64,000 nt of DNA, taken from assembly GCA_030431755.1 (NCBI GenBank), contig JAUIIK010000001.1:42184-106183 (forward strand), read 5' to 3'. Source of the DNA: Chloroflexia bacterium. GTDB lineage: Bacteria > Chloroflexota > Chloroflexia > Thermomicrobiales > CFX8. Below are positions 5,087 through 40,961 of the stretch, one piece after another (position 1 is the first letter of the stretch; every line of letters starts with the position of its first letter). The notes under the pieces were generated by a model. The model did no database searches. It was given only the letters and a program-made list of their open reading frames with translations, and had not been told where the DNA came from. The position numbers were made by a program, and so were the translations under genes.

Positions 5087-7387
5087 TCAATACACCTCAA
5101 TCGCTGCCGCCAGAACCGGGTCGCCGGCACGTGCCAGGATCGTTGTCTGACCCTCCTGAAACGCAATCTGCCAGCCCAGCTCCTCAAGCGCCGCCACCTG
5201 CTGGGGACCGCGCGCGACAAGCTGCTCACAATCAGCGGAGGTGGAGCGTTCGATCACGCCCATGACGATGAAGCGGGGTTCGATGCCGTTCGGAGTTGGG
5301 CCCGGAGCGCCATTGAGCCAGCTCTGAGCCAACTGGTCTCGGCCACCAATCGCGAGTGTCAGGTCGGTGAATTCGCCGCGCCGCCACTGGCGTTCATGAT
5401 TGGCCCAGCCGAGCATCGTCGGGACGCCGGTGAACGCCGAGAAGCGGTTCATGGGCACGCCGCCGAGCGATTGATAGGCGCATCCCGGCGCTTCAACGAT
5501 GACGTCGCCTGCGCCGGCTTCGGACGCCAGCCATGCAACCGCCGCGGCTTCACCTGGGTTCGATTGCGCGAGATAGGCCGAGCCATCGAGGGTTCCGGAC
5601 ACCACGCCCATGTCCATCCAGTCCTCGGCCGAGAGCACAGCGTATGGCATGGAGACGAGCACGGCGACGACGATTGCCACGGAGCCGGCTCGACGAAAGA
5701 TGGCGCGGTTGCTTGCAGCGACGATGGCGAGGCTCGCCGCGCTCGCGACGCCGAGGAGTATCCACGCCTGGAAGTTCAGCTTGAAGACGGTGTTCATGCG
5801 GCTGCCAAACGAGTCCTGGATGTAGAGGAACTCCGGAACCAGCGCCAGCGCAAAACCGGCGGCAAAGAGGCCGGCGACGATCCGCGCCGGTTGGCGTGTG
5901 TCCCAGACGGAGACCGCGAGGAGGAACGCGCCAGGAATTCCGAGCAACACAAGCGCCGGTGCCCAGGCGATTGCCAACGCGAGGACCACGAGTCCAGCGG
6001 GCACTACGTATGGGATGAGGCCTGCCGTCCTGCTTGCCAGCGTCTCCGACGTGCGGAACACCCAGGCTGAAAAGACGCAGGCGCTGACGATCCACAGGCC
6101 GTGTACCGTCAGCAGCTCCGTGGCCGATGACGGCCGCCAGGTCACAATGGCGATCGTGTCGGGCAACGTACCGAGGACCGGGATGCGCGCGAACCACGCC
6201 GGCACGTCATTGGTTGCAACGCCAACCGGGGCGGTGTAGTGGATAGCAAAGGGCAGCGCGGCAACGGCAGCGCCGGCCAACGCCGCGCCGGCTCGCAGCA
6301 ACAGCTCCTGGTTCAGCGACTTGATGGCGAGCGCCAGCGCGCCAAGTACGACGACAACGCCGACTGGCGCGTCCCAGCTATTCGAGGCATAGAGTAGGCC
6401 AGCGCTCGCGCCGACGGCCGCCACGCGCTGGTAGCTGCACCAGGCACGGCCCGCGGCAAGTCCAGTAGCCAACACAACCACGGAGAGCAGCATTGGCAAC
6501 GTCGTCAAATGCGGGTGAAGGTCGCCGAGGACGAAAGAGAAGGCGGGAAACTCGTTGATCGTGTCAACCGCGTCCGGGTTGCCGTTGATGCCCGTGTCCG
6601 AAATGACGCGGCTCGCCTGCCAACCGACGCCGTCCCACCAGCCGGCCGAGACCGTAGCCGACGGGTCGCGCACGAGCCTGACGAAGGTCTCGAGATTGCC
6701 GGCGACGCCGACGAAGAACGCGGCCAACGCGCCGGCAACCCAGACAGCTGTCGAGGTGAGACGCGCTCGCTCGGCCAGCCATGCGCCGAGGCCAGCGGCG
6801 CAGGTCAATGTCGAGGCGAAGATACTGGCAAGCATGAGATTGAAAGCGACGGCAGTCTCGACCCGGCTGAGGTGGACGAGCGTTGCAACGGACTGGTAGC
6901 CAAAATAGTAGTAGTTGATTGGTGATCCGGCGAACCAGGGATCCGGCGCGGGCACGTCGCTGGAGATCACGACGGAGTTGAGCAGCGCGATCTCCATTGG
7001 TTTCTCGGTAAACGCGATGTCGGGATTCGCCACCCGGAAGACGACATATCCCAATATTCCAAACAACCACAAACCTTCAAACAGAACGATCGCACGCCAC
7101 TCAACCAGAGCGGGCGAACCGTCTCCGTGCTGGCGCACATGCGCCGCCCACGCCACAACACCAACAACCAGCGCTGCCACGCTGACTGTCGTGGTGTTGA
7201 AGGGTACGCCGAGCAACGCTGCTGGCCACCAGACGACGAATGTGGCCAGTGCCAGTCCAACGGGTCGCAGGAGCGCGTGCCGGTACGGGCCGAGCCCTGC
7301 CGCCATCCACCAGACGACGGGCGCAAGGGCGACGGTTATCAGGCTGTACGCGAGCCACCAGCGCAGGACCGCCTCAGCAACGCTCAT
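5087..7387 (-). CDS. DUF2298 / 'Chlor_Arch_YYY' domain polytopic membrane protein (GT-C-like candidate)
   Basis: 766 aa with many TM segments. Motifs: SPINYYYFGY, INEFPAFSFVLGDLHPHL, RMNTVFKLNFQAW. There is a C-terminal soluble domain. ATGA overlap with the upstream paralog (7384-7387). Confidence 0.85.
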   Translation of the reverse strand: MSVAEAVLRWWLAYSLITVALAPVVWWMAAGLGPYRHALLRPVGLALATFVVWWPAALLGVPFNTTTVSVAALVVGVVAWAAHVRQHGDGSPALVEWRAIVLFEGLWLFGILGYVVFRVANPDIAFTEKPMEIALLNSVVISSDVPAPDPWFAGSPINYYYFGYQSVATLVHLSRVETAVAFNLMLASIFASTLTCAAGLGAWLAERARLTSTAVWVAGALAAFFVGVAGNLETFVRLVRDPSATVSAGWWDGVGWQASRVISDTGINGNPDAVDTINEFPAFSFVLGDLHPHLTTLPMLLSVVVLATGLAAGRAWCSYQRVAAVGASAGLLYASNSWDAPVGVVVVLGALALAIKSLNQELLLRAGAALAGAAVAALPFAIHYTAPVGVATNDVPAWFARIPVLGTLPDTIAIVTWRPSSATELLTVHGLWIVSACVFSAWVFRTSETLASRTAGLIPYVVPAGLVVLALAIAWAPALVLLGIPGAFLLAVSVWDTRQPARIVAGLFAAGFALALVPEFLYIQDSFGSRMNTVFKLNFQAWILLGVASAASLAIVAASNRAIFRRAGSVAIVVAVLVSMPYAVLSAEDWMDMGVVSGTLDGSAYLAQSNPGEAAAVAWLASEAGAGDVIVEAPGCAYQSLGGVPMNRFSAFTGVPTMLGWANHERQWRRGEFTDLTLAIGGRDQLAQSWLNGAPGPTPNGIEPRFIVMGVIERSTSADCEQLVARGPQQVAALEELGWQIAFQEGQTTILARAGDPVLAAAIEVY

Positions 7388-10300
7388 AGATTGTGAACTG
7401 CGTCGGCTGCCGGGCGGATCATCGGGAAATCCAGTACCTCGTAGACGCGCGTTGGCCCGCTGACGAAGGCGAGCCGCAGTGACTCGCCGAGCATCGACTC
7501 GAATGCCTGCAAGCCCGCTTCGGAGGCGTAATACTCTGGAGCTTCCTGGTAGTTCCAGTAGCGTTCAACGTCGCCAACGACGACGTAGCGGACGTTATAG
7601 CGACGTAGCAGGTCGAGCTTCTCGGCAGGGACGGTCGAGTTGTAGATCGTCTTGACGTCGGCCATGCGTTTCGCGATGCCCTCTGGATAGCGTTGTTGGT
7701 ACTGGTGCCGGTCCCAGCCGATGACGGCCGGCATGCCGGTCGCGCTCGAAATGCGTGCGCCGTTGCCGCGATATGGGCCGATTCCGGCTTCGACGATGAC
7801 CGCTGTCTGGTCCTCCTGGCCGTTGAGCCAGTTGATCGCGTCCAAATCCCCGGCAAATGAGATCGTGTCGCCGGTTGCGTTCGTGATCCAGCCCTCTTCC
7901 ATCCAGGCGTAGCCATCAAGCGTCAGTGCGGAGGGGGACGTTGGCATGTCCTGACGTAGCCGTACCGGGGTCGCAAAGAAGGGATATGTCAACCCGGCCA
8001 CCAAGGCGACCACGCCGACGCCAGCGAACGCCGGACGGAGAAACCGTCGCCATTGACTTACCGTATGCGGCTCGGATCTTGCGTGTTCGGCCGGCGAAGC
8101 GACGATCCCCAATTGCTGGTTTGCGCCGCTGAGCGATGGCCAGGAGACTGAGCCCACTAGCCGCGCCAGCAGCACGCCGGAGCCGATTGCCAGAAGCATC
8201 CAGGCCTGGAGGTAGAACTTGAAGACCGTGTTCATCCGCTGCCATGAACCGTTCTGCAGGTCATCGACGACGTAGACGAACTCGGTCGAGGCTATCGTCA
8301 AACTCCCGACCGCGATGAACGCCCAGGGGAGAAAATAGCGCGGTTCCCGCCAGCGGCTTACGGCAAACATCGCGCTGTCGGCAGCAAGGCCAACCGCAAC
8401 GGCGGCGGCGGGCGCGGTCGGACTCAGGAATCCGGCTGCGACGACGAGCACGCATATCGCTACGACGGGCAGTGGATGCCGACCAAGCGGCCGCGTCGCC
8501 ATCGCCGCGCCGCCGATAGTCGCAATGACGAGCACAAGCGCAGCAAATACTTCACCGAGTGGCGCGCGTGCGAGTCCCGGCACGCCAATAATCGCACCCG
8601 GCGCGACTGCCGCGAGTCCCAATAGCAGCAAGGGCAACGCCTGCCGCGCACTGTCTGGTCTCGCCGTCGCAGTCAATCCACGGTACAGCATGACGGCTAC
8701 GACGACCATGAAGAAGACGCCCCAGACGGTCAGGAACTGGCGCAGGTTTGACCCAGCGTCGGCCCTTCCAACGCCTTCGACGACGCTATAGAAGTTCGTG
8801 TGAAATGGTAGGAACGCCGTGTAGCCGGCCGCGAGCACCACGCCTCCAGACAGCGCCAGCGTGAACGCAGCGCGAGTGGAGCGCAGCAGGCCGGCGTAGA
8901 AGAGTGTCGCAACCGTTACGGCGATCATCAGCGGCAGGTCCCAGGCGTTGATGACGAAGACACTACCGACCGCGAGCGCGCCAACGACGGCCAGCCCTAT
9001 CGCTCGATCAATCATCAGCGCATCAACTTGTAGCCCCTTGACATACGCGGTCGTTGCGACGAGGAGTGCCAGCGTTAACACGACAATTGGCATACCCATC
9101 AGATGCGGGTGCAGGTCCGCCCAGAGGAACGAGAAGTAGGGGAACTCGTTGATCGTGAAGTCGATGACGCGCGTGCTGCCCCAGAAGTCGAAGAAGTCCG
9201 GCACGTCGCGCCGCAGCTCAAGCACCTGTCGCAAGGCATCGAGGTTGCCCACGAAGAGCACGGCGACGAGCGCGAGTCCCGGCGCGAGGATCGCTCGGCC
9301 AATCCGCCCGGCCTCCCATCTGACACCGGAGAGCATCATCGCGACCAGCGCGACCTGCATCGCTAGCAACGCCGCGAGCGTCGGCACGGCAAGCTGGAAT
9401 GCGTGGGTCACGCCAACCCCGGGCACGCGGCCAATGGTGCTCACGAGATGCCAGCCGTAGTAGTAGTAGTTGATCGCGCCATCGCTGTACCAGGGATCGT
9501 AGGGCGGCATCTCGCCGGACGCCGCCACTGCGCGGAGATAGGCCAGCTCGAACGGCTTTTCGCCGCCGAGAAAGGTCTGCCAAAAATCTGGATACAGCGC
9601 GCGCGCCAACAGGAACGGAGCGAATACCGCCAGCATGAGCCCGGCAGCCAGACCGTAGGCTCGCAGTGATGGGAGGGCTGGCGCGCGCTTCGCATTGTCC
9701 CGCCACTGGAACCAACCCCAACAGGCGATGGCAAGCGCTGCGAGACACATCACAACGGTGGAGGTCGTTGCGCGCCAGAAGCCGAGGCTGGCCCCGATCC
9801 AGATGAGCCAACCGACGATGACGATGCCGACGAGTCTGGTCGCCAGCGCGCCGCGATCCGGCGTCCGGCTGAAGACGAGGGCACTCAACGGCAGAGCCGC
9901 CAGGCCAAAGAGCTCCAGCGCGATCAGCCAGACCAGGAGCGCGACCAACCCGCTGTCCACCGCCAACGCATTCCAGCCGATGTCGGCGACCGCCTCGCGT
10001 TCTCCAACTGGCTCATCGAGTAGGAGCCACTGCTGGGATGGATAGCGTTGCGGCTCCCACGGTTGATTGATGCCCCAGAGCAGCCGGTCGCGAAATTCCG
10101 CCTCGCTCAAGCGCTCAACACGCTCGAAGATCATGACCCGTGGGTGGTCGTATACCGTGAAGCTCTCATCGGCTCCGGAGTCGTCATAACGCACGCCGAA
10201 CAATTCTGGGCGCAGCTCTGCCTGGTACACAAGCTGGTAGCCGAGCTGCCCGTTGACCAAGCGCCGGTAGTACTCGTTCTGGACGCCGTAGCGCCAGGGC

Positions 10301-11847
10301 AGATTGTCAACGGAGTAGATCAAGCGATCGCTGGACATAACGACGTAGTCAACCGGCTCCAGTGCTTCGTAGAGGTAGCTGACTTTCTCCTCGGGTGGCA
10401 GGTCACCGTAGATGTCAAGCGACTGGATGTTGTAGCTACTCGTCTCGCCATCAATGCGTAACGGAAGAGCATCGTCCCATGACTCGGCGCTCAACGTCGC
10501 GCCCGGCTCGACGTTGTCGTAGATCCAGTGCGACGCGGCGATGCGCGGGTGCTCGCCGGAGTAGATCGAGCTGAACCCGAAGGCCCAGAGCGCCGTGACG
10601 CCGAGCACCACGACCGCCGCCGCCAGCGCCGTGCGTCGCGCCTCCGGCCGTTGCATCCAACTCCACAGCATCCCGCCGGCGAAGAGCGCAAAGACCGGCA
10701 ATAGTGGCAGCGCGTAGCGCAAGAAACGCGCCTCGGTGATGAGCAATGTTGGGATGTAGGCGACGATCCAGACAAGCGGTATCGCTAGCGCGACATCGCG
10801 CGATTTCGCCACCCGGAAGACCACGAAGGCAACGCCAGCAAGGCTTGCCAACAGGAGGGCCGGGCCAGCGGTATAGGCAAAGAGGTTCTGCAGCTCGTAG
10901 ACACCGGGTGTCAAGCCGACGAATTGACGGGTAAACGGGACGTCCCAGATCCCGCGCACGATACGCGCTTGCGTCCGGATATCTTGGATAAACGGTTCAC
11001 GGCGAATTAGCGCGTAGGGCTCGAAGAGCGTGAAGACCGCAAGCGCGGTCAGCGCGCCAGCGGCGGCTTGGCCGACGACGTGTTGCCGTCTGTCGGAGCG
11101 CCAAAACACCACACCGAAAGCCAGCAGCAACGGCCCCAACAGCGCCGGCACGCTCGCCTTAGTTGCGAAGGCGCAACCGACGACGATGCCGAGCAGCGCC
11201 GCGCGCTGTAGTGTCGGACGGTCCAAGTAGCGAATTGCAAGGAACAGTGCCGTCGTCACGAACGCTGTCAGCCACGGATCGACGGTGAAGTAGTGGCTCA
11301 GCTGGATTGGCAGCACTGCCAGCGCGTAGAGCGCCGCGCCGATCAATCCTGCGGCGTCGCCAAAGAGCCGCCGGCCGAGGAGAAAGACGACGACGAGGGT
11401 CACGAGATCAAGTAGAGCGGTGAGCGTGCGGCCGACGTGATACAGATCCCGGTATTCGCCGTATTGAGTATCGAAGACCAGGTCGATGGCCCAGCTCACC
11501 GCGCCCTGAACGTAGATCGGCAGCGTGCCGTAGGCAAATGACTGCGGGTTGCCGTTAGCATCGTCGCGGCGCGGGTTGATCGGGCTGTTGGCAGGATCGA
11601 AGACATCGCGCAGGCGGTCTGCCGGCAGCGTGACCCGGTCGCTGGAGACGCTGGCGATGAAGCGCTCATCGGGGTGCAGGTAATGGCCGTCGTCCCAATT
11701 CTGACCATAGAGGCGTAATCCCGCAGCGACGAACATGATCAACAGCAGCGCTAGCCAGGTCTTACTTAGGGTTGATAGACGCTGGGACATGGAGCTGGTT
11801 CCGACTCCCGGATAAGTACTAATCTCCGATGGCTCGTGTCGCTCCAT
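7384..11847 (-). CDS. Fusion of an N-terminal GT39/PMT_2(ArnT)-like glycosyltransferase module with a DUF2298 / YYY-domain module
   Basis: 1487 aa. The N-terminal ~600 aa have the GT-C loop-1 motif (YLHPDERF) and ArnT/PMT-like TM topology. The C-terminal ~850 aa are paralogous to the neighbour (AINYYYYGWH, INEFPYFSFLWADLHPHL, RMNTVFKFYLQAW). Confidence 0.85.
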   Translation of the reverse strand: MERHEPSEISTYPGVGTSSMSQRLSTLSKTWLALLLIMFVAAGLRLYGQNWDDGHYLHPDERFIASVSSDRVTLPADRLRDVFDPANSPINPRRDDANGNPQSFAYGTLPIYVQGAVSWAIDLVFDTQYGEYRDLYHVGRTLTALLDLVTLVVVFLLGRRLFGDAAGLIGAALYALAVLPIQLSHYFTVDPWLTAFVTTALFLAIRYLDRPTLQRAALLGIVVGCAFATKASVPALLGPLLLAFGVVFWRSDRRQHVVGQAAAGALTALAVFTLFEPYALIRREPFIQDIRTQARIVRGIWDVPFTRQFVGLTPGVYELQNLFAYTAGPALLLASLAGVAFVVFRVAKSRDVALAIPLVWIVAYIPTLLITEARFLRYALPLLPVFALFAGGMLWSWMQRPEARRTALAAAVVVLGVTALWAFGFSSIYSGEHPRIAASHWIYDNVEPGATLSAESWDDALPLRIDGETSSYNIQSLDIYGDLPPEEKVSYLYEALEPVDYVVMSSDRLIYSVDNLPWRYGVQNEYYRRLVNGQLGYQLVYQAELRPELFGVRYDDSGADESFTVYDHPRVMIFERVERLSEAEFRDRLLWGINQPWEPQRYPSQQWLLLDEPVGEREAVADIGWNALAVDSGLVALLVWLIALELFGLAALPLSALVFSRTPDRGALATRLVGIVIVGWLIWIGASLGFWRATTSTVVMCLAALAIACWGWFQWRDNAKRAPALPSLRAYGLAAGLMLAVFAPFLLARALYPDFWQTFLGGEKPFELAYLRAVAASGEMPPYDPWYSDGAINYYYYGWHLVSTIGRVPGVGVTHAFQLAVPTLAALLAMQVALVAMMLSGVRWEAGRIGRAILAPGLALVAVLFVGNLDALRQVLELRRDVPDFFDFWGSTRVIDFTINEFPYFSFLWADLHPHLMGMPIVVLTLALLVATTAYVKGLQVDALMIDRAIGLAVVGALAVGSVFVINAWDLPLMIAVTVATLFYAGLLRSTRAAFTLALSGGVVLAAGYTAFLPFHTNFYSVVEGVGRADAGSNLRQFLTVWGVFFMVVVAVMLYRGLTATARPDSARQALPLLLLGLAAVAPGAIIGVPGLARAPLGEVFAALVLVIATIGGAAMATRPLGRHPLPVVAICVLVVAAGFLSPTAPAAAVAVGLAADSAMFAVSRWREPRYFLPWAFIAVGSLTIASTEFVYVVDDLQNGSWQRMNTVFKFYLQAWMLLAIGSGVLLARLVGSVSWPSLSGANQQLGIVASPAEHARSEPHTVSQWRRFLRPAFAGVGVVALVAGLTYPFFATPVRLRQDMPTSPSALTLDGYAWMEEGWITNATGDTISFAGDLDAINWLNGQEDQTAVIVEAGIGPYRGNGARISSATGMPAVIGWDRHQYQQRYPEGIAKRMADVKTIYNSTVPAEKLDLLRRYNVRYVVVGDVERYWNYQEAPEYYASEAGLQAFESMLGESLRLAFVSGPTRVYEVLDFPMIRPAADAVHNL

Positions 11848-11926: not shown

Positions 11927-12439
11927 ATGATACGCACATTGAAGGTCATTGTTGGCGGCGAAGGAGCAGTCGGAAAGACATCGCTCATCCGGCAATACGC
12001 GAAAGCCAAATTCAGCGAGGCACGCAACATCACGCTTGGGATTGACGTCACGACCCAGGAGTTCAACATCGACGGTCAAGACGTCAAGCTCGCCATCTGG
12101 GACATCGAGGGTCAGGCTGGCAACCGCCCGAACTTCTTCCTCGGCGCGCAGGCCGCGCTCCTCGTTTACGACACCACGATTGACGGCTCGCTCCAGGCGC
12201 TGACCGAGTGGCACGCGCGCTGCAAGCGCTATTGCCCCGACGCGCCGATCATCGTCGTCGGCAACAAGATCGACCTCGGCCTCTGGTTTCCCTCTGAGTG
12301 GCCGCGCACGCTGGCATGGTACTCTCGCGCGAAGCACGGCTTCCTGTCGGCGAAGACCGGCGAGAACGTCGGGCAGGGCTTCGAGCTGCTGGCCCGGTCG
12401 GCAATGAACCACGCGGGAGTGCTAGAGACGAGCGCCTGA
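11927..12439 (+). CDS. Ras-superfamily small GTPase (Rab/Rup-like)
   Basis: 170 aa with all five G motifs: G1 GGEGAVGKTS, G2 ITLGIDV, G3 WDIEGQ, G4 GNKIDL, G5 LSAKTG. Confidence 0.85.
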   Translation: MIRTLKVIVGGEGAVGKTSLIRQYAKAKFSEARNITLGIDVTTQEFNIDGQDVKLAIWDIEGQAGNRPNFFLGAQAALLVYDTTIDGSLQALTEWHARCKRYCPDAPIIVVGNKIDLGLWFPSEWPRTLAWYSRAKHGFLSAKTGENVGQGFELLARSAMNHAGVLETSA

Positions 12440-23718: not shown

Positions 23719-24609
23719 ATGAAATCTCTCGATGCCCCGCACGATAGTCGCGCCCAATACTCGCACACCGCAGGCCTCCAGACTGCTGGCGACGACGTTA
23801 CAACAGTCCGCGCAACCGACGGCGTGACGGTGGCCGTTCTCGGCGAGGCGCTGAAGTATCGGGAGCTGCTGGGCTTTCTCGTCTGGCGTGATATCAAGAT
23901 CCGCTACAAACAGACTGCGCTCGGCGGCGCGTGGGCGATTCTCCAGCCGCTGCTATCGATGGCGATCTTCAGCGTCGTCTTCGGTCGGCTGGCGGGATTG
24001 GACAGCGACGGCGTACCCTATCCGCTATTCGCCTACGCGGCGCTCGTGCCCTGGACCTATTTCTCAACGGCTGTCAGCCAGGCCGCTAGCAGTCTCGTCG
24101 ACCAGGAACGCCTGCTCACCAAGGTCTACTTCCCCCGTGCCCTGATGCCGGCTGCGCCGGTCGCCGGCGGGCTGCTCGATTTCGCAGTCGCCTTCGCCCT
24201 CTTGCTTCTGATGCAAGCGTTCTATGGGATCACGCCGGGCTGGGGCATCGTCGCTTTGCCGTGCTTCCTGGCGCTCGCCGTCGCCGCTGCGCTCGGCATC
24301 GGTTTCTGGCTCGCTGCCTTGAACGTCGAATACCGCGACGTGCGCTACGTCGTGCCTTTCTGCCTTCAAGCGCTCTTGTTCGCAACTCCCGTCGCCTACT
24401 CCAGCTCGCTCGTGCCGGAACGCTGGCGTCCGCTCTTCGGGCTGAACCCGATGGCGGGCGTCATCGAGGGCTTTCGCTGGAGTCTGTTCGACCTGCCAGG
24501 TCCGTCGTGGGCGATGATCGCGGTCTCACTTGCTACCACTATCGGTCTGCTCGGCAGCGGCTACCTCTACTTCGCGCGCATGGAGCGTACCTTTGCTGAC
24601 CGCATCTAG
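23719..24609 (+). CDS. wzm: ABC-2 type polysaccharide/O-antigen exporter permease (Wzm/TagG/RfbA-like)
   Basis: LKYRELLGFLVWRDIKIRYKQTALGGAWAILQPLL is the canonical Wzm N-terminal signature. Six predicted TM segments. Confidence 0.85.
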   Translation: MKSLDAPHDSRAQYSHTAGLQTAGDDVTTVRATDGVTVAVLGEALKYRELLGFLVWRDIKIRYKQTALGGAWAILQPLLSMAIFSVVFGRLAGLDSDGVPYPLFAYAALVPWTYFSTAVSQAASSLVDQERLLTKVYFPRALMPAAPVAGGLLDFAVAFALLLLMQAFYGITPGWGIVALPCFLALAVAAALGIGFWLAALNVEYRDVRYVVPFCLQALLFATPVAYSSSLVPERWRPLFGLNPMAGVIEGFRWSLFDLPGPSWAMIAVSLATTIGLLGSGYLYFARMERTFADRI

Positions 24610-24622
24610 GCACAACCGCACG

Positions 24623-25864
24623 GTGATAACGGCGCGCGGTCTCGGCAAGCAGTACCAACTTGGCGGACGCGACAACTACCGGGCGCTCCGCGATGTCCTG
24701 ACGGATTCGACACGCAAGCTCTTTTCCCGCAGCGCTGACCAGCATGATGTCAAGGACAATATCTGGGCGCTGCGAGAGGTGAGCTTCGACATTCGCCAGG
24801 GCGAGATCGTCGGGGTGATTGGTCACAATGGCGCGGGCAAGAGCACATTGCTCCGTATCCTCTCGCGCATCACCCACCCAACGACCGGAGAGTTCAGCTT
24901 TCGCGGCCGCATTGGCTCGCTGCTCGAGGTCGGGACCGGATTCCACCCGGAGCTGACCGGCGGCGAGAACATCTACCTGAGCGGCGCGATCCTCGGCATG
25001 TCGCGCGATGAGATCCGTGCCCGCTTCGACGAGATCGTCGCCTTCGCCGAAATCGAGCCGTTCGTGGACACACCGGTGAAACGCTTCTCAACCGGCATGT
25101 ACATGCGGCTGGCCTTCGCGGTCGCCGCCCATCTCGATACGGATATCCTGCTCGTTGATGAGGTTCTGGCGGTGGGCGATGCGCGCTTCCAGCAGCGCTG
25201 CATCGGCGCGCTTGAGAATGCGGCCTTCGAGCATGGGCGCACGGTGCTCCTGGTCAGCCATAACATGGCAACGATTGAGAAGCTCTGCGGACGCGCGCTG
25301 CTGATCGATCACGGTCGGCTCGCTGTCGACGGCAGTCCAACGGAGGCGCTCGAAGCCTATCTCGCAGACGTCCCGACGGCGAGCAAACCCGGTGAGTGGA
25401 TCGACCTTGGCGACGCGCGCAGATCTGGGAGCGGCGAGGCGCGCTTCATCGCGCTGCGCTACTCCGCCGGCAGCGTTGAGCAGCAGCGGCGTGTGCAGCC
25501 CGGCGCGTCAATCGCCATCGATCTCCGCATCAACACCAAGCAGGCCATGACAGTCAACCACCTCGCTGTATCGATCACCGATCGGCGGAGCACGAAGCTG
25601 ATCCATGCCGATGTCGCCCAATCCGGTGATTTCATCAGGCTCGACGAAGGCAACAACGTCTTTCGCGTGTCGCTGCCGTCACTGGCGCTCAATCCGGGTC
25701 GCTATGCGCTTGAGCTGCGGCTTGCGCGGCGGCGCAACAGCGTCGTCGACGCGCTCGAGCCAGCGATCGAATTCGACGTATTCAGCCCTGATGGCGCTGA
25801 TGCCGTGGACCCCACCGAGCACGGCTACCTCTGGACAGCAGCTACCTTCGACCGCATCACGTAG
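24623..25864 (+). CDS. wzt: Polysaccharide ABC exporter ATP-binding protein with C-terminal glycan-binding beta-sandwich (Wzt-like)
   Basis: Walker A GHNGAGKST, signature FSTGMYMRLAFA, Walker B ILLVDEVLAVGD. A ~170-aa C-terminal extension (..RRSGSGEARFIALRYS..) resembles the Wzt C-terminal domain. GTG 24623 gives the usual short N-terminus (VITARGLGKQY). Confidence 0.85.
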   Translation: MITARGLGKQYQLGGRDNYRALRDVLTDSTRKLFSRSADQHDVKDNIWALREVSFDIRQGEIVGVIGHNGAGKSTLLRILSRITHPTTGEFSFRGRIGSLLEVGTGFHPELTGGENIYLSGAILGMSRDEIRARFDEIVAFAEIEPFVDTPVKRFSTGMYMRLAFAVAAHLDTDILLVDEVLAVGDARFQQRCIGALENAAFEHGRTVLLVSHNMATIEKLCGRALLIDHGRLAVDGSPTEALEAYLADVPTASKPGEWIDLGDARRSGSGEARFIALRYSAGSVEQQRRVQPGASIAIDLRINTKQAMTVNHLAVSITDRRSTKLIHADVAQSGDFIRLDEGNNVFRVSLPSLALNPGRYALELRLARRRNSVVDALEPAIEFDVFSPDGADAVDPTEHGYLWTAATFDRIT

Positions 25865-25893
25865 CGCTTACACCCACGACCAAGTGGCCAGGC

Positions 25894-27531
25894 TCACGCT
25901 TGCACAAGCGGCAGCAGCGCCGCGAGCAGTCCGGCGAACTCATTGTGATGGCTCCTACGCTGCCGCTCGCCGAGATGCCTCTCGCGGCGCTCGCGCTCGA
26001 CGCCGTGCTCCAGCAGCATGACGATCCAAAACGGGATGAGATAGTCCCGACTGATCTCGAATGCTGCCCGGTAGCGGTCGATCTCTTCGCTGGCGGCCTG
26101 CATCGCGTCGGTATGCTCCGCAGCAGGGCCGAGAAGGGCAAGGAGCCATGCTGCACTATCGTCACGCCCATCGACAGCGCAGCCCCAGTGCAACGTGAAG
26201 TAGAGCAGGTCACAGATCCCTGGCCCGGGAGGCGCGTCCGGCGACGCGTTCTCCCAATCGATCACGCTCAGATGAGCTCCGTCGCGCAGCACGTTCCACG
26301 GTGTGAAATCGCGATGGCGCAACGTTACGCTGAGCGGGTCGTCCACGAGGCGCTCAACACGCTGTCGCGTCGCGTCGACCGTCAGGAGCGCATCTGGGTA
26401 ATGCCTGGCCCACATGGAGCGAACTGCGGCCGGCATGTCGAGCGACCCGGCGAACCAAGCGCGCGCGCTGGCCCGCTCGCTCGGTTCGAGGTGACGATGC
26501 GCACGGCGCAGCCAATGCGCCGCCAGCCGCAGGTCGAGCTGTTTCTCGCCAAAGGCCCGGTTTCGTCTCCAGGCCAGGTCAATGACTCGAGTGCCTGGGG
26601 TCCACGATTCTGTCACGGTGAGCGTTGTCCCGTCCCGCCGTTCCGCAAGCGGCATCGGGACCGCCACCGCCAACTCCTCCGGAAGCATCCTATGAAGATG
26701 CGCTAGTGTCGACTGCTCGCGCGCGATCTGTTCATCGAAGTTCGGGTGGCGTGCTGTCTTCGCCACACGCATGGGCTGCGAGCTCTCGTCCGAAAACCAG
26801 AGCGTCACGACGCGGCTGCCGTCGTCGACACCGCTCGTCATCTGAATTCGGGCCGTTTCGTTCAACTGAGATTCAACGGCACAACGATCAATCCGGCTCA
26901 GGGCTCCTGGTGGTGCCAGGGTGGAGAGGAACTCCACCCCTACGGCGCTCCGGGTGCGGCGACGTTCGGTGCGGCCTTGTACAGCAGGTCCTGCCGTGGG
27001 CGGGAGCTTCCAGGCTACTGTCCCGATCGCGGCTCCCCGTCGCATCGCCAACCGGCTAGCAATGCGTGGGGACCGCGAAAGCATCCACCTGGCAACCTGC
27101 TGAACTGCACTAGCACCGGAGACTAAACTACGCGCGTACCAGGCCATGGTCCGGTCGTCGACCTGAACATAGCGACGAGCGTTCGCCGGGCCGAGGAGCA
27201 GATAGTGCGTGATTGAGACATCCCGTATGTCGGTCTGCTCTATCGGTCCCTCGAAATAGAGCGCCTGGCCCGGCGTCAACAGCGCGCAGGCATCCCGGAA
27301 CGACAACGGCGACCCCGGCAACACGGCCAATGCTTGATACTCGTTCGAGCGACTGGAGATCGGGGCGACATGCCGGGCAATACCGCAATCCACGAGCAGA
27401 TCACCTAGCCCTGCCGGACCGCCCGAAAGGGCGAGGAGGTCGAATTCCGGACCGACCTGCGGACCAAACAGGAAGCGCCAATCAGCGTGCCGTAGCGTCG
27501 ATTCGCCCGTCACCGGACGAGCCCGTGACAT
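25894..27531 (-). CDS. Two-domain protein: N-terminal Rossmann-like (possibly degenerate methyltransferase) region plus C-terminal APH/protein-kinase-like phosphotransferase; WbdD-like chain-terminator candidate
   Basis: Kinase-fold catalytic loop HRDFTPWNVLRDGAHLSVIDWENA..ICDLLYF. N-terminal G-rich segment LLALSGGPAGLG..LLTPGQALYFEG. Last gene of the glycan operon, convergent with wzt. Confidence 0.65.
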   Translation of the reverse strand: MSRARPVTGESTLRHADWRFLFGPQVGPEFDLLALSGGPAGLGDLLVDCGIARHVAPISSRSNEYQALAVLPGSPLSFRDACALLTPGQALYFEGPIEQTDIRDVSITHYLLLGPANARRYVQVDDRTMAWYARSLVSGASAVQQVARWMLSRSPRIASRLAMRRGAAIGTVAWKLPPTAGPAVQGRTERRRTRSAVGVEFLSTLAPPGALSRIDRCAVESQLNETARIQMTSGVDDGSRVVTLWFSDESSQPMRVAKTARHPNFDEQIAREQSTLAHLHRMLPEELAVAVPMPLAERRDGTTLTVTESWTPGTRVIDLAWRRNRAFGEKQLDLRLAAHWLRRAHRHLEPSERASARAWFAGSLDMPAAVRSMWARHYPDALLTVDATRQRVERLVDDPLSVTLRHRDFTPWNVLRDGAHLSVIDWENASPDAPPGPGICDLLYFTLHWGCAVDGRDDSAAWLLALLGPAAEHTDAMQAASEEIDRYRAAFEISRDYLIPFWIVMLLEHGVERERRERHLGERQRRSHHNEFAGLLAALLPLVQA

Positions 27532-28376
27532 GCGCGCGCCAATGCCCCGATACGCCGCGCTCCGCCAACAAGCCGAAGAACGACCTCGAGTTGGAGCAGT
27601 CGCAACTTGCCGTAGTGCTTCCGATAGTAGCGCCGCGCTCCCGTCTGCCAGCGGCGCCAGACGCCGTCAGGGGCATCGGGACTACTCCCACCTCCGACAT
27701 GCGCGACCGTCGCAAACGGCGCGAAATGCACCTCGCGGCCAAACGCCCAGCACCGCGCGCAGTAGTCAGTCTCCTCGTAGTAAAGCGGAAACTGCTCATC
27801 GAAGCCCCCGAGCCGGTCAAATGTCTCCCGCTCGATGAGCAACGCAGCGCCGAGCAGCCAGCGCACTCTCCGTGGACGGCGATGATCCCACCAGCGCACA
27901 GAGAGACGCCCCGCGCCCGGCAGACGAGCAAGCAGCGGGCTCAGCCCGCTTGAATCGATCAACACGTTCAATGGTGTCGGCTCCGGATAGCACGATGGCT
28001 GGAGCGTGCCATCCGGATTGACGATGCGCGGCCCGATGACGGCTGCTTCCGGATGCCGCTTCGCGTATGCCGCAAGCTGGCTGACCGTGCCAGGCTCGGA
28101 CACGGTGTCGGGATTGAGCAGCAGCGCATACGGGGTGGTGGTCTCGCGAATACCCTGGTTGGCCGCCGGTCCGTAGCCGCGGTTGCGCCCGTTCAAGATA
28201 GCCCGTACCTGAGGGAACTCCGTGCCTAGCATCTCGATCGTGCCGTCAGTAGATGCATTGTCGACGACGACCAATTGAGCGAGGCCCTGACCTCCGAGCG
28301 CGGCAAGGCAGCGCCGAAGGTGATCGCGGGAGTTGTAGCTGACGATGCAAGCTGCGACCGGGTACAGCGCGCTCAT
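27510..28376 (-). CDS. Glycosyltransferase family 2
   Basis: CIVSYNSRDHLRRCLAAL..VVVDNASTDGT and a DxD-type region (LLNPDT). 288 aa. ATGA overlap with the upstream gene. Confidence 0.85.
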   Translation of the reverse strand: MSALYPVAACIVSYNSRDHLRRCLAALGGQGLAQLVVVDNASTDGTIEMLGTEFPQVRAILNGRNRGYGPAANQGIRETTTPYALLLNPDTVSEPGTVSQLAAYAKRHPEAAVIGPRIVNPDGTLQPSCYPEPTPLNVLIDSSGLSPLLARLPGAGRLSVRWWDHRRPRRVRWLLGAALLIERETFDRLGGFDEQFPLYYEETDYCARCWAFGREVHFAPFATVAHVGGGSSPDAPDGVWRRWQTGARRYYRKHYGKLRLLQLEVVLRLVGGARRIGALARACHGLVR

Positions 28377-30253
28377 TCGCTAGAGTTGAAGGCGGTGCTA
28401 TCGAGTGGTTCGCTCAGCACGAGAATTGTCGCGTCATCGGTATCGAGCACAGCGCGGAACTCGCCCGACTCGAGCAGTTCATCAACCAGATGATCCAGCG
28501 CGCCGGTCTCCAGCCCGTAGAAGATATCAACCGCCGCGCTCGTTGCCCGCGTGACGACGAAATAGACCTCATTCCGGTTCGTCTCGCGGACCTCGCGCAT
28601 GTAGGTAGCGATCTGGTCGGGGTCGCCCTCGCGGATCATACGCGCCGGGATGACGCGCTCGCTAAGATCCTCGTAGCGCTCGGCCTTCCAGGGCACGCTC
28701 GGCCCGCCGGCCACCAACACCGCGCCCTCGGGCGCTTCGGCATAGAGATACGCAATCGCAGCCACCTCCTCGGCGGTGTAGTAGTCCATGCGCTCGTTTC
28801 CGAAGCGCGCGAAGAGAAATCCGCCGAACAAGACGAGACTGAGCGCTCCAGCAACGAGCGAGGTCCGCAGCTGAGTCTGCCCCGGACGCGCGTAGATCGC
28901 GAGCGCGGCCAGCAACGCCAGGCCCGGCAACGCGAAGAAGAAGGCACGCAGCACGCCCTCGCCGCCGTAGGCCTGCAAGCCCAGGATGACGACCGGCGCG
29001 CCCGCCAGCAGGATTGGGACGATATCCCAGCGACCGGAGCAAACCCGCATCACGATGCCGATCCCGGCCAGGATGATGTAGGCGACGGCCATCACGAGCC
29101 GCATCTGGACGACGAAGACATGCTCCCGGCTGCCGCTGACCCGGCCGGCGACGCCGGCATTCACGTTGCCGCTCAACTGGCCGACGCCACTAGCAACACC
29201 TTCGAGGTGCCCCAGCAAGAACGGCACAGTCGCGAAGGCGATCCAGCTTCCGACGACCAGCCCGGCATAGAGCGCGATGCCGGTTGGCTGAATCCGCCGG
29301 AAGATCACCAGTGCGCCGAGCATGATGACCAACGCCACCGGCGTGAGCTGGTGGCTCGGGGCCATCGCGGCAATGATCAGCAGCGTTGCCAGCATGAGCC
29401 CGACACGCTGCCACGGTCCGGCCAGGCCGGTGTCGCCGTCGATCTCACTCGCCGCTGCGAGCTGCCGCGAAACCACGGGAAAGCGCTCCAGATGAGCGGC
29501 CGTCCAGGCCCGGAATCTGCTCGGCTCGGCGCTCAGGGGCATCGGGAACCAGTGCAGAAGGATGGCCAGGACCGACAGATAGAGCAAATAGTCCAACGCT
29601 TGCGGCGCGAAGTAATCCTGGCCAATCCAGTTGCCGAGGTAGAAGAGCCAGATCCCGAACCAGCGCGCCCGCTCGTCGCGGACGATGGACTTGAAGATGA
29701 CATACAGCGGCGCAAGATAGAGCGCGTTGAAGACGAGCGAGGCCCAGCCGGCCAACGCTGACGGGTCATCGACGCCGGTCAGTTCGGTGAGCAGCGCCGC
29801 GAGGATAAATGCGCCCGGCCAGCTGAAGTAGGCATCGAGTCGTGTGTCGAGCTGTTCATTGCGGATGATGTACTCGGTAATCCCGATGTGTTTCCAGGTC
29901 GCTGCAAAGCGCGGCGCTTCCTCAACCGCCGAGGTCGTCGCAAAGAGAATCACGATCATCGCCGCAATATGTAGAAAGACCGCAACTTGAGAGACCTTTG
30001 CGCCGCGGAGCGACGATACAAAGCCACAGGTGAGCGTCGCAAACGCCGCGTAGTACAGCACCGGCAGCACCGACACCAGGCCGAGGTCGTTCATCCCCTC
30101 GACCGAGATGCGGTCGAGCGAGAGCGCCCAGAGGACCAGCGCCAGCGGCGGAAACGCAAGCTCTACCGGAGGCAGGCGCAACCAGCCGCTGCGGCCACGC
30201 AACGCACTGGAGAATCTGCGTTCGCCTGGTTCTAGTCGAACGGATTCAGCCAT
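28373..30253 (-). CDS. Large polytopic membrane protein with C-terminal soluble domain (polymerase or GT-C-like candidate)
   Basis: 626 aa, about 14 hydrophobic segments, then a ~130-aa hydrophilic tail (YYTAEEVAAIAYLYAEAPEGAVLVAGG..). Embedded in the glycan operon. No named family recognised by eye. Confidence 0.65.
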   Translation of the reverse strand: MAESVRLEPGERRFSSALRGRSGWLRLPPVELAFPPLALVLWALSLDRISVEGMNDLGLVSVLPVLYYAAFATLTCGFVSSLRGAKVSQVAVFLHIAAMIVILFATTSAVEEAPRFAATWKHIGITEYIIRNEQLDTRLDAYFSWPGAFILAALLTELTGVDDPSALAGWASLVFNALYLAPLYVIFKSIVRDERARWFGIWLFYLGNWIGQDYFAPQALDYLLYLSVLAILLHWFPMPLSAEPSRFRAWTAAHLERFPVVSRQLAAASEIDGDTGLAGPWQRVGLMLATLLIIAAMAPSHQLTPVALVIMLGALVIFRRIQPTGIALYAGLVVGSWIAFATVPFLLGHLEGVASGVGQLSGNVNAGVAGRVSGSREHVFVVQMRLVMAVAYIILAGIGIVMRVCSGRWDIVPILLAGAPVVILGLQAYGGEGVLRAFFFALPGLALLAALAIYARPGQTQLRTSLVAGALSLVLFGGFLFARFGNERMDYYTAEEVAAIAYLYAEAPEGAVLVAGGPSVPWKAERYEDLSERVIPARMIREGDPDQIATYMREVRETNRNEVYFVVTRATSAAVDIFYGLETGALDHLVDELLESGEFRAVLDTDDATILVLSEPLDSTAFNSSE

Positions 30254-30363
30254 CGTCCCTATCCGTTGAACGCTCCGCCACCTGCGCCACCAGCCAACGC
30301 AGCGAGGCCAGCATCATTCGATGACAATACGCACGTTCTGTAATAGTAATACAGTGCATACGA

Positions 30364-31383
30364 TCATCGCGCCGCAAAGGTCCGTTGCGCCAGCCGCTCC
30401 ACCAGCGGTTTCGGAGCTGCACCGGCGGCGGCGAACCAGGCCGCGAACCCGGCCCTCCGCCAGACCGGTGCGTCGTCACGCCGCTTCGCCGCCCATATGC
30501 CGGATGAAACGAGTGACGCGCGCGAGTCATGCCGGCGTGGATGCCCTTCCGGATCAAGCCGGAGCGACACCAGCCGGGCTGCCAGATCCGTCACCGAGAG
30601 CTGCCCACGGCCATCGCCGGCGTCCGGATCGAGACCCAGCTCGCAGGCCCGCCGGCGAACATGCGCGTCCCCGGCTTGATTGCGTTCGATGAGCCCACGC
30701 AGCGCAGCAAGATCAAGCGACGTCCGGTGGTGGGCATTCCCACCATGCACACGGTAGCGCCCGAGAACCTGATCGAGCGAGACGACGTCGCCGTAGAGCG
30801 GGGTGAGATTCAGCAGGTAGAGATCAGCGAGTACCGCGCCATACTCGGCCTCCGGGATCGGCAGTATCCGCTCGAGCACGCGCCGCCGATAGGCGTTGCC
30901 ACTCATCGGCGGACAGCGGACGTCGTGTGGATAACGGAGGATCTCCGAGCGGAGGTCGCCGTCAGGCATACGCCTGTGCTGAGGCGGGGTCGTGCCCGGC
31001 AGCGACACGCCGTTCCCATCGACATGGCCAAGCCGAAACTGCACCCGCGCCGCGTCCGGGCGCTCGGCAAACGCCTGCGCGACGAGCCCGGCCGCGTGCG
31101 GCTCCAGCCAGTCGTCGGCATCGAGAAAGTGCACGACATCGCCACGGGCCAGCCTGAAGCCAGTGTTGACGGCCGCGGCCTGGCCCGCGTTCGAGCGCTG
31201 GCGCGCGGCTTGAATCGAGCTGCCGTATGACTCGATCGTGGTCCAAGATTCGTCAGTCGATGCATCATCAACGACAACGACCTCAACATCGACGCCCTGC
31301 TGCCCGAGCGCGCTCTCGATAGCATCCGGTAGATAGCGGGCGTAGTTGTAGTTCGAGATGATGATGCTGACTGCCGCCTTCAT
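30364..31383 (-). CDS. Glycosyltransferase family 2
   Basis: MKAAVSIIISNYNYARYLPDAIESALGQ..VEVVVVDDASTDES, DADD motif. ATG 31383 forms an ATGA overlap with the flippase stop. The 35-aa Arg-rich extension to 31488 is rejected. Confidence 0.85.
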   Translation of the reverse strand: MKAAVSIIISNYNYARYLPDAIESALGQQGVDVEVVVVDDASTDESWTTIESYGSSIQAARQRSNAGQAAAVNTGFRLARGDVVHFLDADDWLEPHAAGLVAQAFAERPDAARVQFRLGHVDGNGVSLPGTTPPQHRRMPDGDLRSEILRYPHDVRCPPMSGNAYRRRVLERILPIPEAEYGAVLADLYLLNLTPLYGDVVSLDQVLGRYRVHGGNAHHRTSLDLAALRGLIERNQAGDAHVRRRACELGLDPDAGDGRGQLSVTDLAARLVSLRLDPEGHPRRHDSRASLVSSGIWAAKRRDDAPVWRRAGFAAWFAAAGAAPKPLVERLAQRTFAAR

Positions 31384-32798
31384 GGCAGCCGGCTCGAAGG
31401 CTCCGGATGCAATGCCGGCGAACTCGCGGCCCGCGTTCGCGTGAGCATGGGACTGAGCCGAAGCGCCGCGACCACCGCGCCGACGCATTGGGCGATCAGC
31501 CAGAATGCAGCGACGCCGACAAGCCCAAACTCAAGCGCGCCAAACGCCGCGCCGGCCAGGGAAAGGAAGCTGATGCCGCCGGCCACGATTGCAGGTTCCG
31601 TCAGATCGCGGGTGGCGCGCCGGACGGCAACATAGGTCTCGATGAAGGTGCGTGGAAGAACACCCAGCGCCACGAGCCGCAACGCAGCCGCGCCCTCACG
31701 CGCATAGTCTGCGCCCATGATCGAAAGCAGGAGATCGGCGCTAACGATGAGCACAAGCGCGACAGGCACGCCGATTGCAAGCGCAGTCGTTACGCTCTTC
31801 CGCACGCTCACGTCGACGCTCCGGCGGTTCGCGGCGGCCTGGGAGAAGAGCGCCTGGGCACTCGCGCTTGGCACGACCATCACCAGGACGCCAAACATCC
31901 ACACCGCATACCAGTAGGCCGCCGCGCTCGCCCCGAGCAGCTCCGCGACCAGGATCGGCAGTATCCAGATCTGCGCGAGCAGCGCCAGCGATAGCCGGTA
32001 GTTCGGCAGCCCGATTGAGAGCATCACCTTCATCGTCCTGCGCCGGAACTTCGGTAGCAACGTGAGCTTCGGCAGATGCCATGTCAATTGCACGATGCCC
32101 AGAACGTTCGAGAGCAGCAACGCGACAGACCAGGCGAGCATGATCGCCGCGACGCCGTCCGTCGACGACGCCAGGGCGGCGGCCGCGAGAACGGCGACGC
32201 TAACGACACCCTGCACTGCGCTGCGCACGACGATGCGCTCGGCGCGCCGTACGGCGAGCAACACGGCGTCGATTGCGACCGATAGTGTCCAGAGCAGGCT
32301 CAACAAGACGAACCCGGCGGCATAGCCGGGCTCTCGCGCGAGCGCCGCCATGTCGTCCAGCACAACTGAAGCGGTCAGCAGGAATGCAGTGTTAACAACC
32401 AGCGCGGCAAGCAGCACCGTCGAGAAGAAGGTGCGCATGAGGCCGGACGAATGCCGGCGGACACCAGGCAGCATCGTGATGACCGCAGCGTTGAGCCCAA
32501 GCAGGGCGAGCTGCGCCGAGAGCCGCATCGCCGACGTTGCGCCAGCGCCGAGCCCAACCGCGTCGGCTTCAAATAGCCGCGCGGCAAGCAACCAGAATGG
32601 GTAACCGAGCGCTGCCGAGAGCATGACGTTCAGCATGAGTGCGAGTGCATTGGCCCGCATCGGAAGTGCCCGGTAGTCGATGTCTCCACGGGCACGCCAG
32701 ATCAATCCACGCCAGCCGTCGTCGAGGAGCTCGCTCAGCTCATCCAGCGCGCCCTGGACGAAACCCGTCGCGGCGCGGCTGCGGCGCCGCAGGTTCAT
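31380..32798 (-). CDS. MOP-superfamily oligosaccharide flippase-like protein (Wzx-like)
   Basis: 472 aa, about 12-14 TM segments, typical polysaccharide-biosynthesis-protein topology. ATGA overlaps on both sides. Confidence 0.7.
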   Translation of the reverse strand: MNLRRRSRAATGFVQGALDELSELLDDGWRGLIWRARGDIDYRALPMRANALALMLNVMLSAALGYPFWLLAARLFEADAVGLGAGATSAMRLSAQLALLGLNAAVITMLPGVRRHSSGLMRTFFSTVLLAALVVNTAFLLTASVVLDDMAALAREPGYAAGFVLLSLLWTLSVAIDAVLLAVRRAERIVVRSAVQGVVSVAVLAAAALASSTDGVAAIMLAWSVALLLSNVLGIVQLTWHLPKLTLLPKFRRRTMKVMLSIGLPNYRLSLALLAQIWILPILVAELLGASAAAYWYAVWMFGVLVMVVPSASAQALFSQAAANRRSVDVSVRKSVTTALAIGVPVALVLIVSADLLLSIMGADYAREGAAALRLVALGVLPRTFIETYVAVRRATRDLTEPAIVAGGISFLSLAGAAFGALEFGLVGVAAFWLIAQCVGAVVAALRLSPMLTRTRAASSPALHPEPSSRLP

Positions 32799-37046: not shown

Positions 37047-37063
37047 GTCGTCCTCGCCCTCGC

Positions 37064-39968
<2,905 letters not shown>

Positions 39969-39969
<1 letters not shown>

Positions 39970-40829: not shown

Positions 40830-40961
40830 GCGCGCTTCCTTTCCCCTTGACCGTGGCAGCGAGCAATGGGGCTCCCACATACCAACTTGCTCGCCATGCA
40901 GACCGATCAGTGCGAGGCAAGCGTTGAACCCAGACCCCTGTCCTTGCCCCAGATGGTCAGT

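Follow-up and report, generated by a model that had tools for sequence, protein, structure and literature searches.

Two overlapping genes on the minus strand of the 64,000-nucleotide stretch of Chloroflexia DNA analyzed here (contig JAUIIK010000001.1; the whole stretch is called the window below) encode large membrane proteins of the YYY/DUF2298 family. The first, at 5087..7387 (-), specifies a standalone YYY protein of 766 amino acids (aa), which was characterized through its open reading frame (ORF), Pfam and TIGRFAM matches, an AlphaFold2 model, Foldseek and a topology prediction. The second, at 7384..11847 (-), was taken from the ORF listing and specifies a two-module protein of 1487 aa. 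The stop of the larger ORF and the start of the smaller one overlap in an ATGA at 7384-7387. Two starts are possible for the larger ORF: the ATG at 11847 gives 1487 aa, while the public gene call begins at M20 and gives 1468 aa. A scan for promoters and terminators around the pair returned nothing informative. As modeled, the pair encodes three modules with the glycosyltransferase C (GT-C) fold, one of them Agl23-like (PMT_2 type) and two of them YYY, and all three retain all of their invariant residues.

Family membership was clear for both proteins. The Pfam model PF10060 (DUF2298; cut-off, 27.8 bits) matched the 766-aa protein with 337 bits (E = 2.7e-100) and the 1487-aa protein with 292 bits (E = 1.6e-86), and the NCBIfam model TIGR03662 (Chlor_Arch_YYY; curated cut-off, 300.25 bits) scored 382 and 448 bits, respectively. 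TIGR03662 is described as a highly hydrophobic protein of 700-900 aa with a YYYxG motif, which is present as INYYYFG (aa 157-163) in the smaller protein and as INYYYYG (aa 792-798) in the larger one. The two paralogs are 31% identical across the membrane core (BLASTP; E = 2e-28) and have in common INYYY(F/Y)G, INEFP.FSF...DLHPH, RMNTVFK, VIVEA and GW..H. The original prediction, made from the letters of the window, had described ATGA-coupled paralogs of 766 and 1487 aa sharing YYY-family motifs. The ORFs, lengths and overlap were verified on the minus strand, every motif that it listed was present in the BLASTP alignment, and the search that it had proposed against the DUF2298/YYY models gave the scores above. 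The nearest homologs of the pair carry the labels Thermomicrobiales or Chloroflexota.

Fold and conserved residues of the YYY module

The AlphaFold2 model of the 766-aa protein, built on an alignment of this protein with 73 homologs (A1), had a mean predicted local distance difference test (pLDDT) score of 94.8, a predicted TM-score of 0.94 and around 16 helices. Compared with the PDB by Foldseek, its best match was AftA (E = 2e-4; probability, 1.0; target-normalized TM-score, 0.53), and ArnT, human STT3A, AftD, EmbA/EmbB, Pmt1/Pmt2, ALG3 and Pmt4 were the other GT-C matches. The probability was 1.0 for AftA, ArnT and STT3A (target-normalized TM-scores, 0.38-0.53) and 0.99 for AftD, and matches outside the GT-C enzymes never exceeded 0.12. 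A GT-C-like core, which the original prediction had proposed to look for in structural models, was thus the only fold matched with confidence. By sequence, neither protein had a significant match in the PDB, and nor did profiles (ArnT came nearest, with E = 0.25); the PMT and PMT_2 models did not detect the YYY module. The alignment of YYY residues 95-764 with residues 26-587 of the N-terminal module of the larger protein (N-module) by hhalign was colinear (probability, 72%; pairwise E = 3.5e-5). It paired YYY helix 97-120 with the first transmembrane (TM) helix of the N-module, the NPD...TEKPME loop with its loop 1, and the C-terminal soluble domains with each other. This points to a weak, colinear homology between the YYY module and the PMT_2-like N-module. 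The alignment and the model together suggest that the GT-C core of YYY has 13 helices, with three additional helices N-terminal to it and an alpha/beta domain as a cap. At the level of the modeled fold, the YYY family is a previously uncharacterized branch of the GT-C superfamily.

Conservation was assessed in 103 YYY modules from 82 loci of bacteria and archaea, and residues are numbered as in the 766-aa protein. Because the DLHPH and RMNTVFK patterns had served to retrieve the 82 loci, the set is biased toward these two motifs; their residues were also invariant in the alignments A1 and A2, built from homology searches that did without the patterns. Eight residues of the first half (E128, Y159, G163, E279, P281, D289, H291 and H293) and eight of the second (R530, N532, T533, F535, K536, W542, G654 and E713) were conserved in 100% of the modules. 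At least 97% of them carried D149 (98%), W151 (97%), Y160 (98%), N231, N336 and W338. To establish the topology, helix boundaries were taken from the model, sides were alternated along the chain, and the positive-inside rule was applied. Loops placed on the cytoplasmic side had 0.179 lysines plus arginines per residue and the short outer loops 0.062, which predicts 16 TM helices, with the N terminus, the C-terminal domain and the conserved motifs on the outer face. None of the motifs was predicted to face the cytoplasm; motifs on that side were what the original prediction had named as counting against it. The N-module is predicted to begin inside, to cross the membrane with 11 helices and to end in an outer domain, and the N-out start of YYY therefore fits the fusion.

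The invariant residues cluster in a few outer segments. The start of the first long outer loop, NPDIAFTEKPME (aa 121-132; 6992..7027 [-]), holds E128 in 103 of 103 modules and aligns with loop 1 of the N-module in hhalign. This loop (aa 121-177) contains helices 129-141 and 162-174, and is predicted outside, and its E128 may be the equivalent of D128 of AftA. The family signature, PDPW plus INYYYFG (aa 148-163; 6899..6946 [-]), was delimited by conservation and lies in the same loop. The second long outer loop carries INEFPAFSFVLGDLHPH (aa 277-293; 6509..6559 [-]) with E279, D289, H291 and H293, invariant in A1, in A2 and in the 103 modules, and the invariant RMNTVFK (aa 530-536; 5780..5800 [-]) spans an outer loop and the start of TM15. 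After the last TM helix, the model shows a mixed alpha/beta domain (aa 594-766; 5087..5608 [-]) with VIVEA, GW..HE and E713, which helix count and the positive-inside rule place outside the cell; E632, G654, H664, R683, G710 and E713 are conserved in it. A C-terminal soluble domain in both proteins had been predicted, and VIVEA and GW..H are indeed shared by the two.

By analogy with characterized GT-C enzymes, we infer that E128 is a candidate catalytic acid/base, that E279, D289, H291 and H293 are a candidate metal or ligand site, and that R530 and K536 are candidate phosphate binders. The position of RMNTVFK would correspond to that of the donor-phosphate arginine of AftA and of the arginine preceding TM10 in PMT and PMT_2 enzymes (PMC10265970, PMC7801869).

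The N-module, the partners of YYY and their genomic setting

The N-module occupies residues 1 to approximately 630 of the 1487-aa protein (9958..11847 [-]); it has approximately 11 TM helices plus an alpha/beta domain on the outer side. The PMT_2 model (PF13231; cut-off, 26.1 bits) matched residues 140-272 with 45.7 bits (E = 1e-11), and many orthologs of the protein also match PF02366 (PMT). The AlphaFold2 model of residues 1-640 had a pLDDT of 91.7, and its Foldseek matches were STT3/AglB (top, E of about 1e-9), ALG12/ALG9, Pmt4, ArnT, DPY19, PglB and Emb. Members of the PMT/PMT_2 clan characteristically have an acidic pair in loop 1 and an arginine before TM10 (PMC7801869). In the N-module, loop 1, which follows TM1 (aa 20-46), carries D52-D53 and D60-E61 within NWDDGHYLHPDERF (aa 50-63; 11659..11700 [-]), where D52, H58, P59, D60 and E61 are invariant. 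The segment EARFLRY (aa 372-378; 10714..10734 [-]) places invariant R377 and Y378 before helix 376-398, the tenth TM helix, and K230 is also invariant. The claim that the larger protein has about 600 extra N-terminal residues with an acidic loop-1 motif and ArnT/PMT-like features was thus borne out. The remainder of the protein is the second YYY module (aa 635-1487; 7384..9945 [-]), in which all the family motifs are intact (GGEKPFE, YDPW, INYYYYG, INEFP..DLHPH, NAWD, RMNTVFK, VIVEA and GWDRHQ). Since the N-module is a genuine GT-C module, the 1487-aa protein carries two of them. Of its earlier description as a dual-module extracytoplasmic glycosyltransferase, the two modules and the predicted outward motifs stand, while catalysis stays at the level of inference.

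By profile comparison, the N-module is related over its full length to the Agl23 family. The hhalign alignment of the two had a probability of 97.9% (E = 3.2e-13; residues 13-570 versus 4-550) and paired the HPDE of loop 1 with an HHDE in the Agl23 family. The curated Agl23 model, TIGR03663 (cut-off, 126.25 bits), did not match the N-module at E ≤ 0.01, and we therefore call it Agl23-like, a member of a related subfamily, and not Agl23. Its assignment as ArnT was rejected, with PRK13279 scoring 22.5 bits against a cut-off of 567 and the PDB profile of 5ezm matching at E = 0.25. The original prediction had noticed neither the relationship to Agl23 nor that YYY and Agl23-like proteins repeatedly occur together.

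Relatives of YYY were found in at least 582 genomes in a scan of species-representative genomes, and a full hidden Markov model search returned 8,794 clusters at 50% identity. The original prediction had described the family as restricted mainly to Chloroflexi and Archaea. Its relatives occur in all major classes of Chloroflexota, in Methanosarcinales, Methanoculleus and Methanobacteriota, and also in Binatia, Acidobacteriota and Rubrobacter, so this restriction has to be dropped. A haloarchaeal YYY, sought as a possible neighbor of agl23 in Haloarcula, was not seen among the 120 matches listed, where only Methanomicrobiales appeared. The fusion of a PMT_2-type module with YYY was present in 31 of the 82 nonredundant loci, and such a GT-C was fused or adjacent to YYY in at least 55 of them, a lower bound because many contigs end early. 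When the partner is a separate gene, it scored above the TIGR03663 cut-off in 8 of the 12 cases tested (222-431 bits). Because the N-module is homologous to the Agl23 family, the 1487-aa protein can be seen as a fusion of partners that are separate, but neighboring, elsewhere. All the fused-type YYY modules (31/31) had another fused module as nearest neighbor, and the 25 that could be compared were all closer to the fused module of another genome than to the adjacent paralog. These comparisons place the fused-type YYY in an ancient orthologous group of its own, and the standalone YYY of the window groups with the standalone type that pairs with Agl23. Two Agl23-family partners (L024 12414-15785 and L039 4118-7198) have a C-terminal NHL/ScyF-like beta-propeller region, possibly acceptor binding. 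Giant relatives of 2,000-2,700 aa (P0204, P0205, P0209, P0239 and P0254-P0277) each have between two and four stretches matching the YYY profile, and the first four of these additionally carry PMT_2 and tetratricopeptide repeat (TPR)-type Pfam domains; they could hold up to three or four GT-C modules per chain.

In relatives, YYY is accompanied by genes that recall the supply of lipid-linked donors. The three-component paradigm comprises a lipid-phosphate-sugar synthase, a flippase and a GT-C (PMC11127046). This layout is present in Methanoculleus chikugoensis and Methanoregula, where a flavoprotein, a GT2, a flippase-like protein (TIGR00374) and YYY are encoded by overlapping genes in that order. 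An Agl23 ortholog (431 bits) lies approximately 6 kb upstream of the archaeal operon. The archaeal GT2 has 239 aa, and its best NCBIfam matches, to dolichyl-phosphate hexose transferase and ArnC, did not reach the respective cut-offs. The corresponding block in Dehalococcoidia encodes FtsY, YYY, an Agl23-like protein, a flippase-like protein (PF03706/TIGR00374) and a flavoprotein (NF005560, HpnE/CrtI-like); of the donor-supply components it has the flippase-like gene only, with no GT2 adjacent. The NF005560 flavoprotein (L085 6103-7335, L086 6097-7329, L069 14209-15540 and L004 14021-15343) is conserved with the YYY, flippase-like and Agl23-like genes in both Dehalococcoidia and Methanomicrobiales. 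It is annotated as a hypothetical protein, is distantly related to HpnE, CrtI and protoporphyrinogen oxidase, and might tailor the polyprenol carrier or oxidize or epimerize the lipid-linked sugar. In six dehalococcoidial loci (L033, L038, L054, L059, L072 and L083), a gene with a sortase domain lies a few genes from the YYY/Agl23-like block, which may hint at protein acceptors or simply reflect shared synteny.

The setting of the pair in the window is housekeeping and not a variable glycan island. The order fmt, (Ras-like GTPase), PMT_2-YYY, YYY, infC-rpmI-rplT-trmH-HU is kept in Thermomicrobiales and Sphaerobacter down to 35% identity. The Ras-family small GTPase of the window (11927-12439 [+]) is divergent from the GT-C pair, and a gene with the same Pfam domains stands at the same position in Sphaerobacter (L001 4925-5428). 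The original prediction had the pair as a possible partner of the glycan loci of the window. The ABC-transporter-type glycan locus (23719-40880) is 12-28 kb from the pair and outside its conserved synteny, which is with fmt and infC-rpmI-rplT-trmH; the GT2s of the window matched a single ORF across the loci compared, and the archaeal GT2 was found at three bacterial loci. We therefore set this link aside as unsupported. Co-occurrence with a GT2 resembling polyprenol-phosphate-sugar synthases was seen in the archaeal operons and not in the bacterial loci at large.

This glycan locus encodes Wzm, Wzt with a Wzt_C domain, four GT2, two GT4, two sulfotransferases and a fused ATP-sulfurylase/adenosine-5'-phosphosulfate kinase (3'-phosphoadenosine-5'-phosphosulfate synthase), a gene content that suggests a sulfated polysaccharide. 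An adjacent pair of its GT2s resembles the archaeal AglJ and AglG without reaching either curated cut-off, and two of its products (28373-30253 [-] and 31380-32798 [-]; 626 and 472 aa) had no match in Pfam or NCBIfam. Beyond it lie a gene for a 733-aa protein (41169-43370 [-]) with weak chondroitinase-B/DUF5123 (beta-helix) matches below the cut-offs and, downstream of the locus, one for a PGA_cap (CapA-type) protein (45911-47299 [-]).

A proposed role in extracytoplasmic glycosylation

We favor, with moderate confidence, a role of YYY in outward glycosyl transfer from polyprenol-phosphate sugars, in partnership with the Agl23-like module. The products of the two genes would then form an extracytoplasmic glycosylation machine. 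YYY would take a polyprenol-phosphate-linked sugar from the outer leaflet of the membrane, with R530 and K536 holding the phosphate, and pass it to an envelope acceptor, probably a protein or glycan that is produced constitutively, with E128 of the first long outer loop as the catalytic base. In the next outer loop, E279, D289, H291 and H293 would make a metal or substrate site. The Agl23-like module would supply or use the same class of donor, and it may belong to the same pathway or complex because it is fused or adjacent to YYY. The two YYY paralogs would be nonredundant, taking successive steps or forming a heterodimer, as for Pmt1-Pmt2 and EmbA-EmbB.

Several observations weigh against this proposal. 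The TM-scores to solved GT-C structures are modest (0.43-0.53), with identities of 9-14%. The suggested equivalences of E128 with D128 of AftA and of R530/K536 with its R415 rest on sequence position and one hhalign alignment at 72% probability, and the position of D123, the counterpart of D52 in the N-module, holds an acidic residue in no more than 62% of the modules. A tblastn search of the window detected no homologs of the archaeal GT2, flippase-like protein or flavoprotein, and among about 80 bacterial loci only 3 had a GT2 in their flanks. The only studied member of the partner family, Agl23, has been described as a flippase and not as a transferase. The papers found on DUF2298 and TIGR03662 yielded incidental mentions and nothing on function; the hits to a "YYY domain" concern the unrelated Y_Y_Y domain and were set aside.

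The description of Agl23 leads to a different view, in which YYY and the Agl23-like module would be a flippase or scramblase apparatus for polyprenol-phosphate-linked sugars and another enzyme would make the transfer. Haloarcula hispanica Agl23 (HhAgl23), of the recurrent partner family of YYY and homologous to the N-module, is described as a putative hexose-phosphate-dolichol flippase. Its expression complements yeast rft1-delta, and in liposomes M5GN2-PP-Dol is translocated by the purified protein (PMC11182771); both results speak for translocation, as does the NCBI name of the TIGR03663 family, "flippase activity-associated." We nevertheless find this view unlikely. A dedicated flippase-like protein (TIGR00374/PF03706) already stands beside YYY in the archaeal and dehalococcoidial clusters, YYY itself has no detectable similarity to Agl23 (hhalign probability, 0.1%), and invariant acidic, histidine, arginine and lysine residues on the outer face, combined with a capping outer domain, are features of GT-C transferases.

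It is also improbable that YYY is an en bloc transferase, ligase or polymerase of polyprenol-pyrophosphate- (or phosphate-) linked oligosaccharides, like oligosaccharyltransferases (OSTs) or AglB. STT3A is within the top four structural matches of YYY, and STT3/AglB is at the top for the N-module. OSTs carry WWDxG directly after the last TM helix, and at that place the N-module has S-W-D-D (aa 456-459), with W457 invariant and D458 nearly so, though not a full WWDxG. The D-x-H-x-H and glutamate cluster of YYY would suit a divalent metal, such as that of PglB near its catalytic site (PMC10265970). Set against this, neither module matched the STT3 or OST models and YYY lacks WWDxG, which led us to reject both as members of the OST family, the structural likeness being at the superfamily level. 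The short archaeal GT2 is nearest to the makers of monosaccharide donors, dolichyl-phosphate hexose transferase and ArnC, and AftA, the best structural match of YYY, transfers a single sugar. From the earlier idea of YYY as a second GT-C-type or OST-like unit, we thus keep the GT-C fold and leave the OST-like role. That one or both YYY modules are noncatalytic scaffolds or acceptor-binding subunits, with the PMT_2/Agl23-like module as the sole enzyme, seems to us very unlikely. There is a precedent for an inactive GT-C fold in PIG-U (PMC7801869), glycosylphosphatidylinositol-transamidase subunit U was among the weak Foldseek matches, and another GT-C module almost always accompanies YYY. Yet the charged residues at GT-C active-site positions are 100% conserved in bacteria and archaea and in both paralog groups, and YYY is the sole GT-C within the operon itself at many loci, including the archaeal operon.

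Returning to glycosyl transfer by YYY, a wider version of this proposal can be offered only tentatively, and we regard it as rather doubtful. YYY and the Agl23-like protein would be a conserved, outward-facing two-enzyme hexosyltransferase machine of Chloroflexota and Euryarchaeota, the enzyme so far missing, that glycosylates S-layer or envelope proteins from polyprenol- or dolichol-phosphate-hexose. The flippase phenotype of Agl23 would then reflect its role in a complex, and the HpnE/CrtI-like flavoprotein would tailor the carrier or the sugar in a new donor pathway.

The placement of DUF2298, a large family without assigned function, among the GT-C enzymes turns it into a concrete hypothesis of how the envelope is glycosylated in lineages with little-known cell surfaces, namely the Chloroflexota, including Dehalococcoidia, and the methanogens. 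It supplies candidate catalytic residues, predicted to face outward, and a defined set of partner genes: the Agl23-like GT-C, the flippase-like protein, the flavoprotein and, in archaea, the GT2 resembling dolichyl-phosphate-hexose synthases. It also touches on the nature of Agl23, be it flippase, transferase or component of a complex, since YYY constantly accompanies Agl23 in genomes and in this window is its fusion partner. Were activity demonstrated, YYY would found a new CAZy glycosyltransferase family, as GT136 did.

Comparison with known systems

The archaeal YYY operon, with its GT2, flippase-like protein and GT-C, resembles the GtrA/GtrB/Gtr*, ArnC/ArnT and GT136 systems (PMC11127046). 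It differs from these three-component systems in that the flippase candidate is of the MprF-TM/TIGR00374 type and not GtrA, SMR or MATE, and in the addition of an HpnE/CrtI-like flavoprotein and a second, Agl23-like GT-C; in the window, the synthase and flippase genes are not near the pair. Dimers are common among GT-C enzymes (PMC10265970). Like Pmt1-Pmt2 and EmbA-EmbB, the YYY proteins are two ancient, nonredundant paralogs encoded side by side, but one of them is covalently fused to a third GT-C module. We know of no characterized paralog pair with such a fusion.

ArnT (GT83) is the closest solved relative of the N-module by sequence (the match at E = 0.25) and a confident structural match for both modules. 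The N-module is nevertheless far below the ArnT equivalog cut-off (22.5 versus 567 bits), and lipid A would not be expected in a monoderm lineage such as this one. Zn2+ is bound between JM1 and PL4 in ArnT, and Mn2+ close to the catalytic site in PglB (PMC10265970); the ArnT site resembles the candidate E/D-x-H-x-H site proposed for YYY. The relatives of 2,400-2,700 aa add TPR repeats, as TMTC1-4 do.

The N-module aligns over its full length with the family of Haloarcula hispanica Agl23 (TIGR03663) and shares its H-x-D-E loop-1 motif. Agl23 acts on hexose-phosphate-dolichol for extracellular glycosylation (PMC11182771) and was studied as a flippase, transferase activity not being reported for it. 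Unlike Agl23, the N-module misses the TIGR03663 model, has an NWDD insertion and is fused to YYY.

The closest parallel for YYY itself is AftA (GT85; PDB 8if8), the priming arabinofuranosyltransferase of Mycobacterium tuberculosis. AftA has extra N-terminal TM helices, the catalytic Asp128 on the first long loop of two crossed helices, Arg415 where the donor phosphate binds and a C-terminal alpha/beta domain as a cap over the site (PMC10265970). YYY likewise has a C-terminal alpha/beta domain, predicted outside, and extra helices before its GT-C core. These helices number three in YYY, with the N terminus outside, and two in AftA, and identity is 12-14%. YYY has an invariant glutamate as the putative equivalent of Asp128 in AftA, and its YYY-G, INEFP and D-x-H-x-H motifs are specific to the family. 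YYY has no connection with arabinogalactan and is found in Chloroflexota and methanogens.

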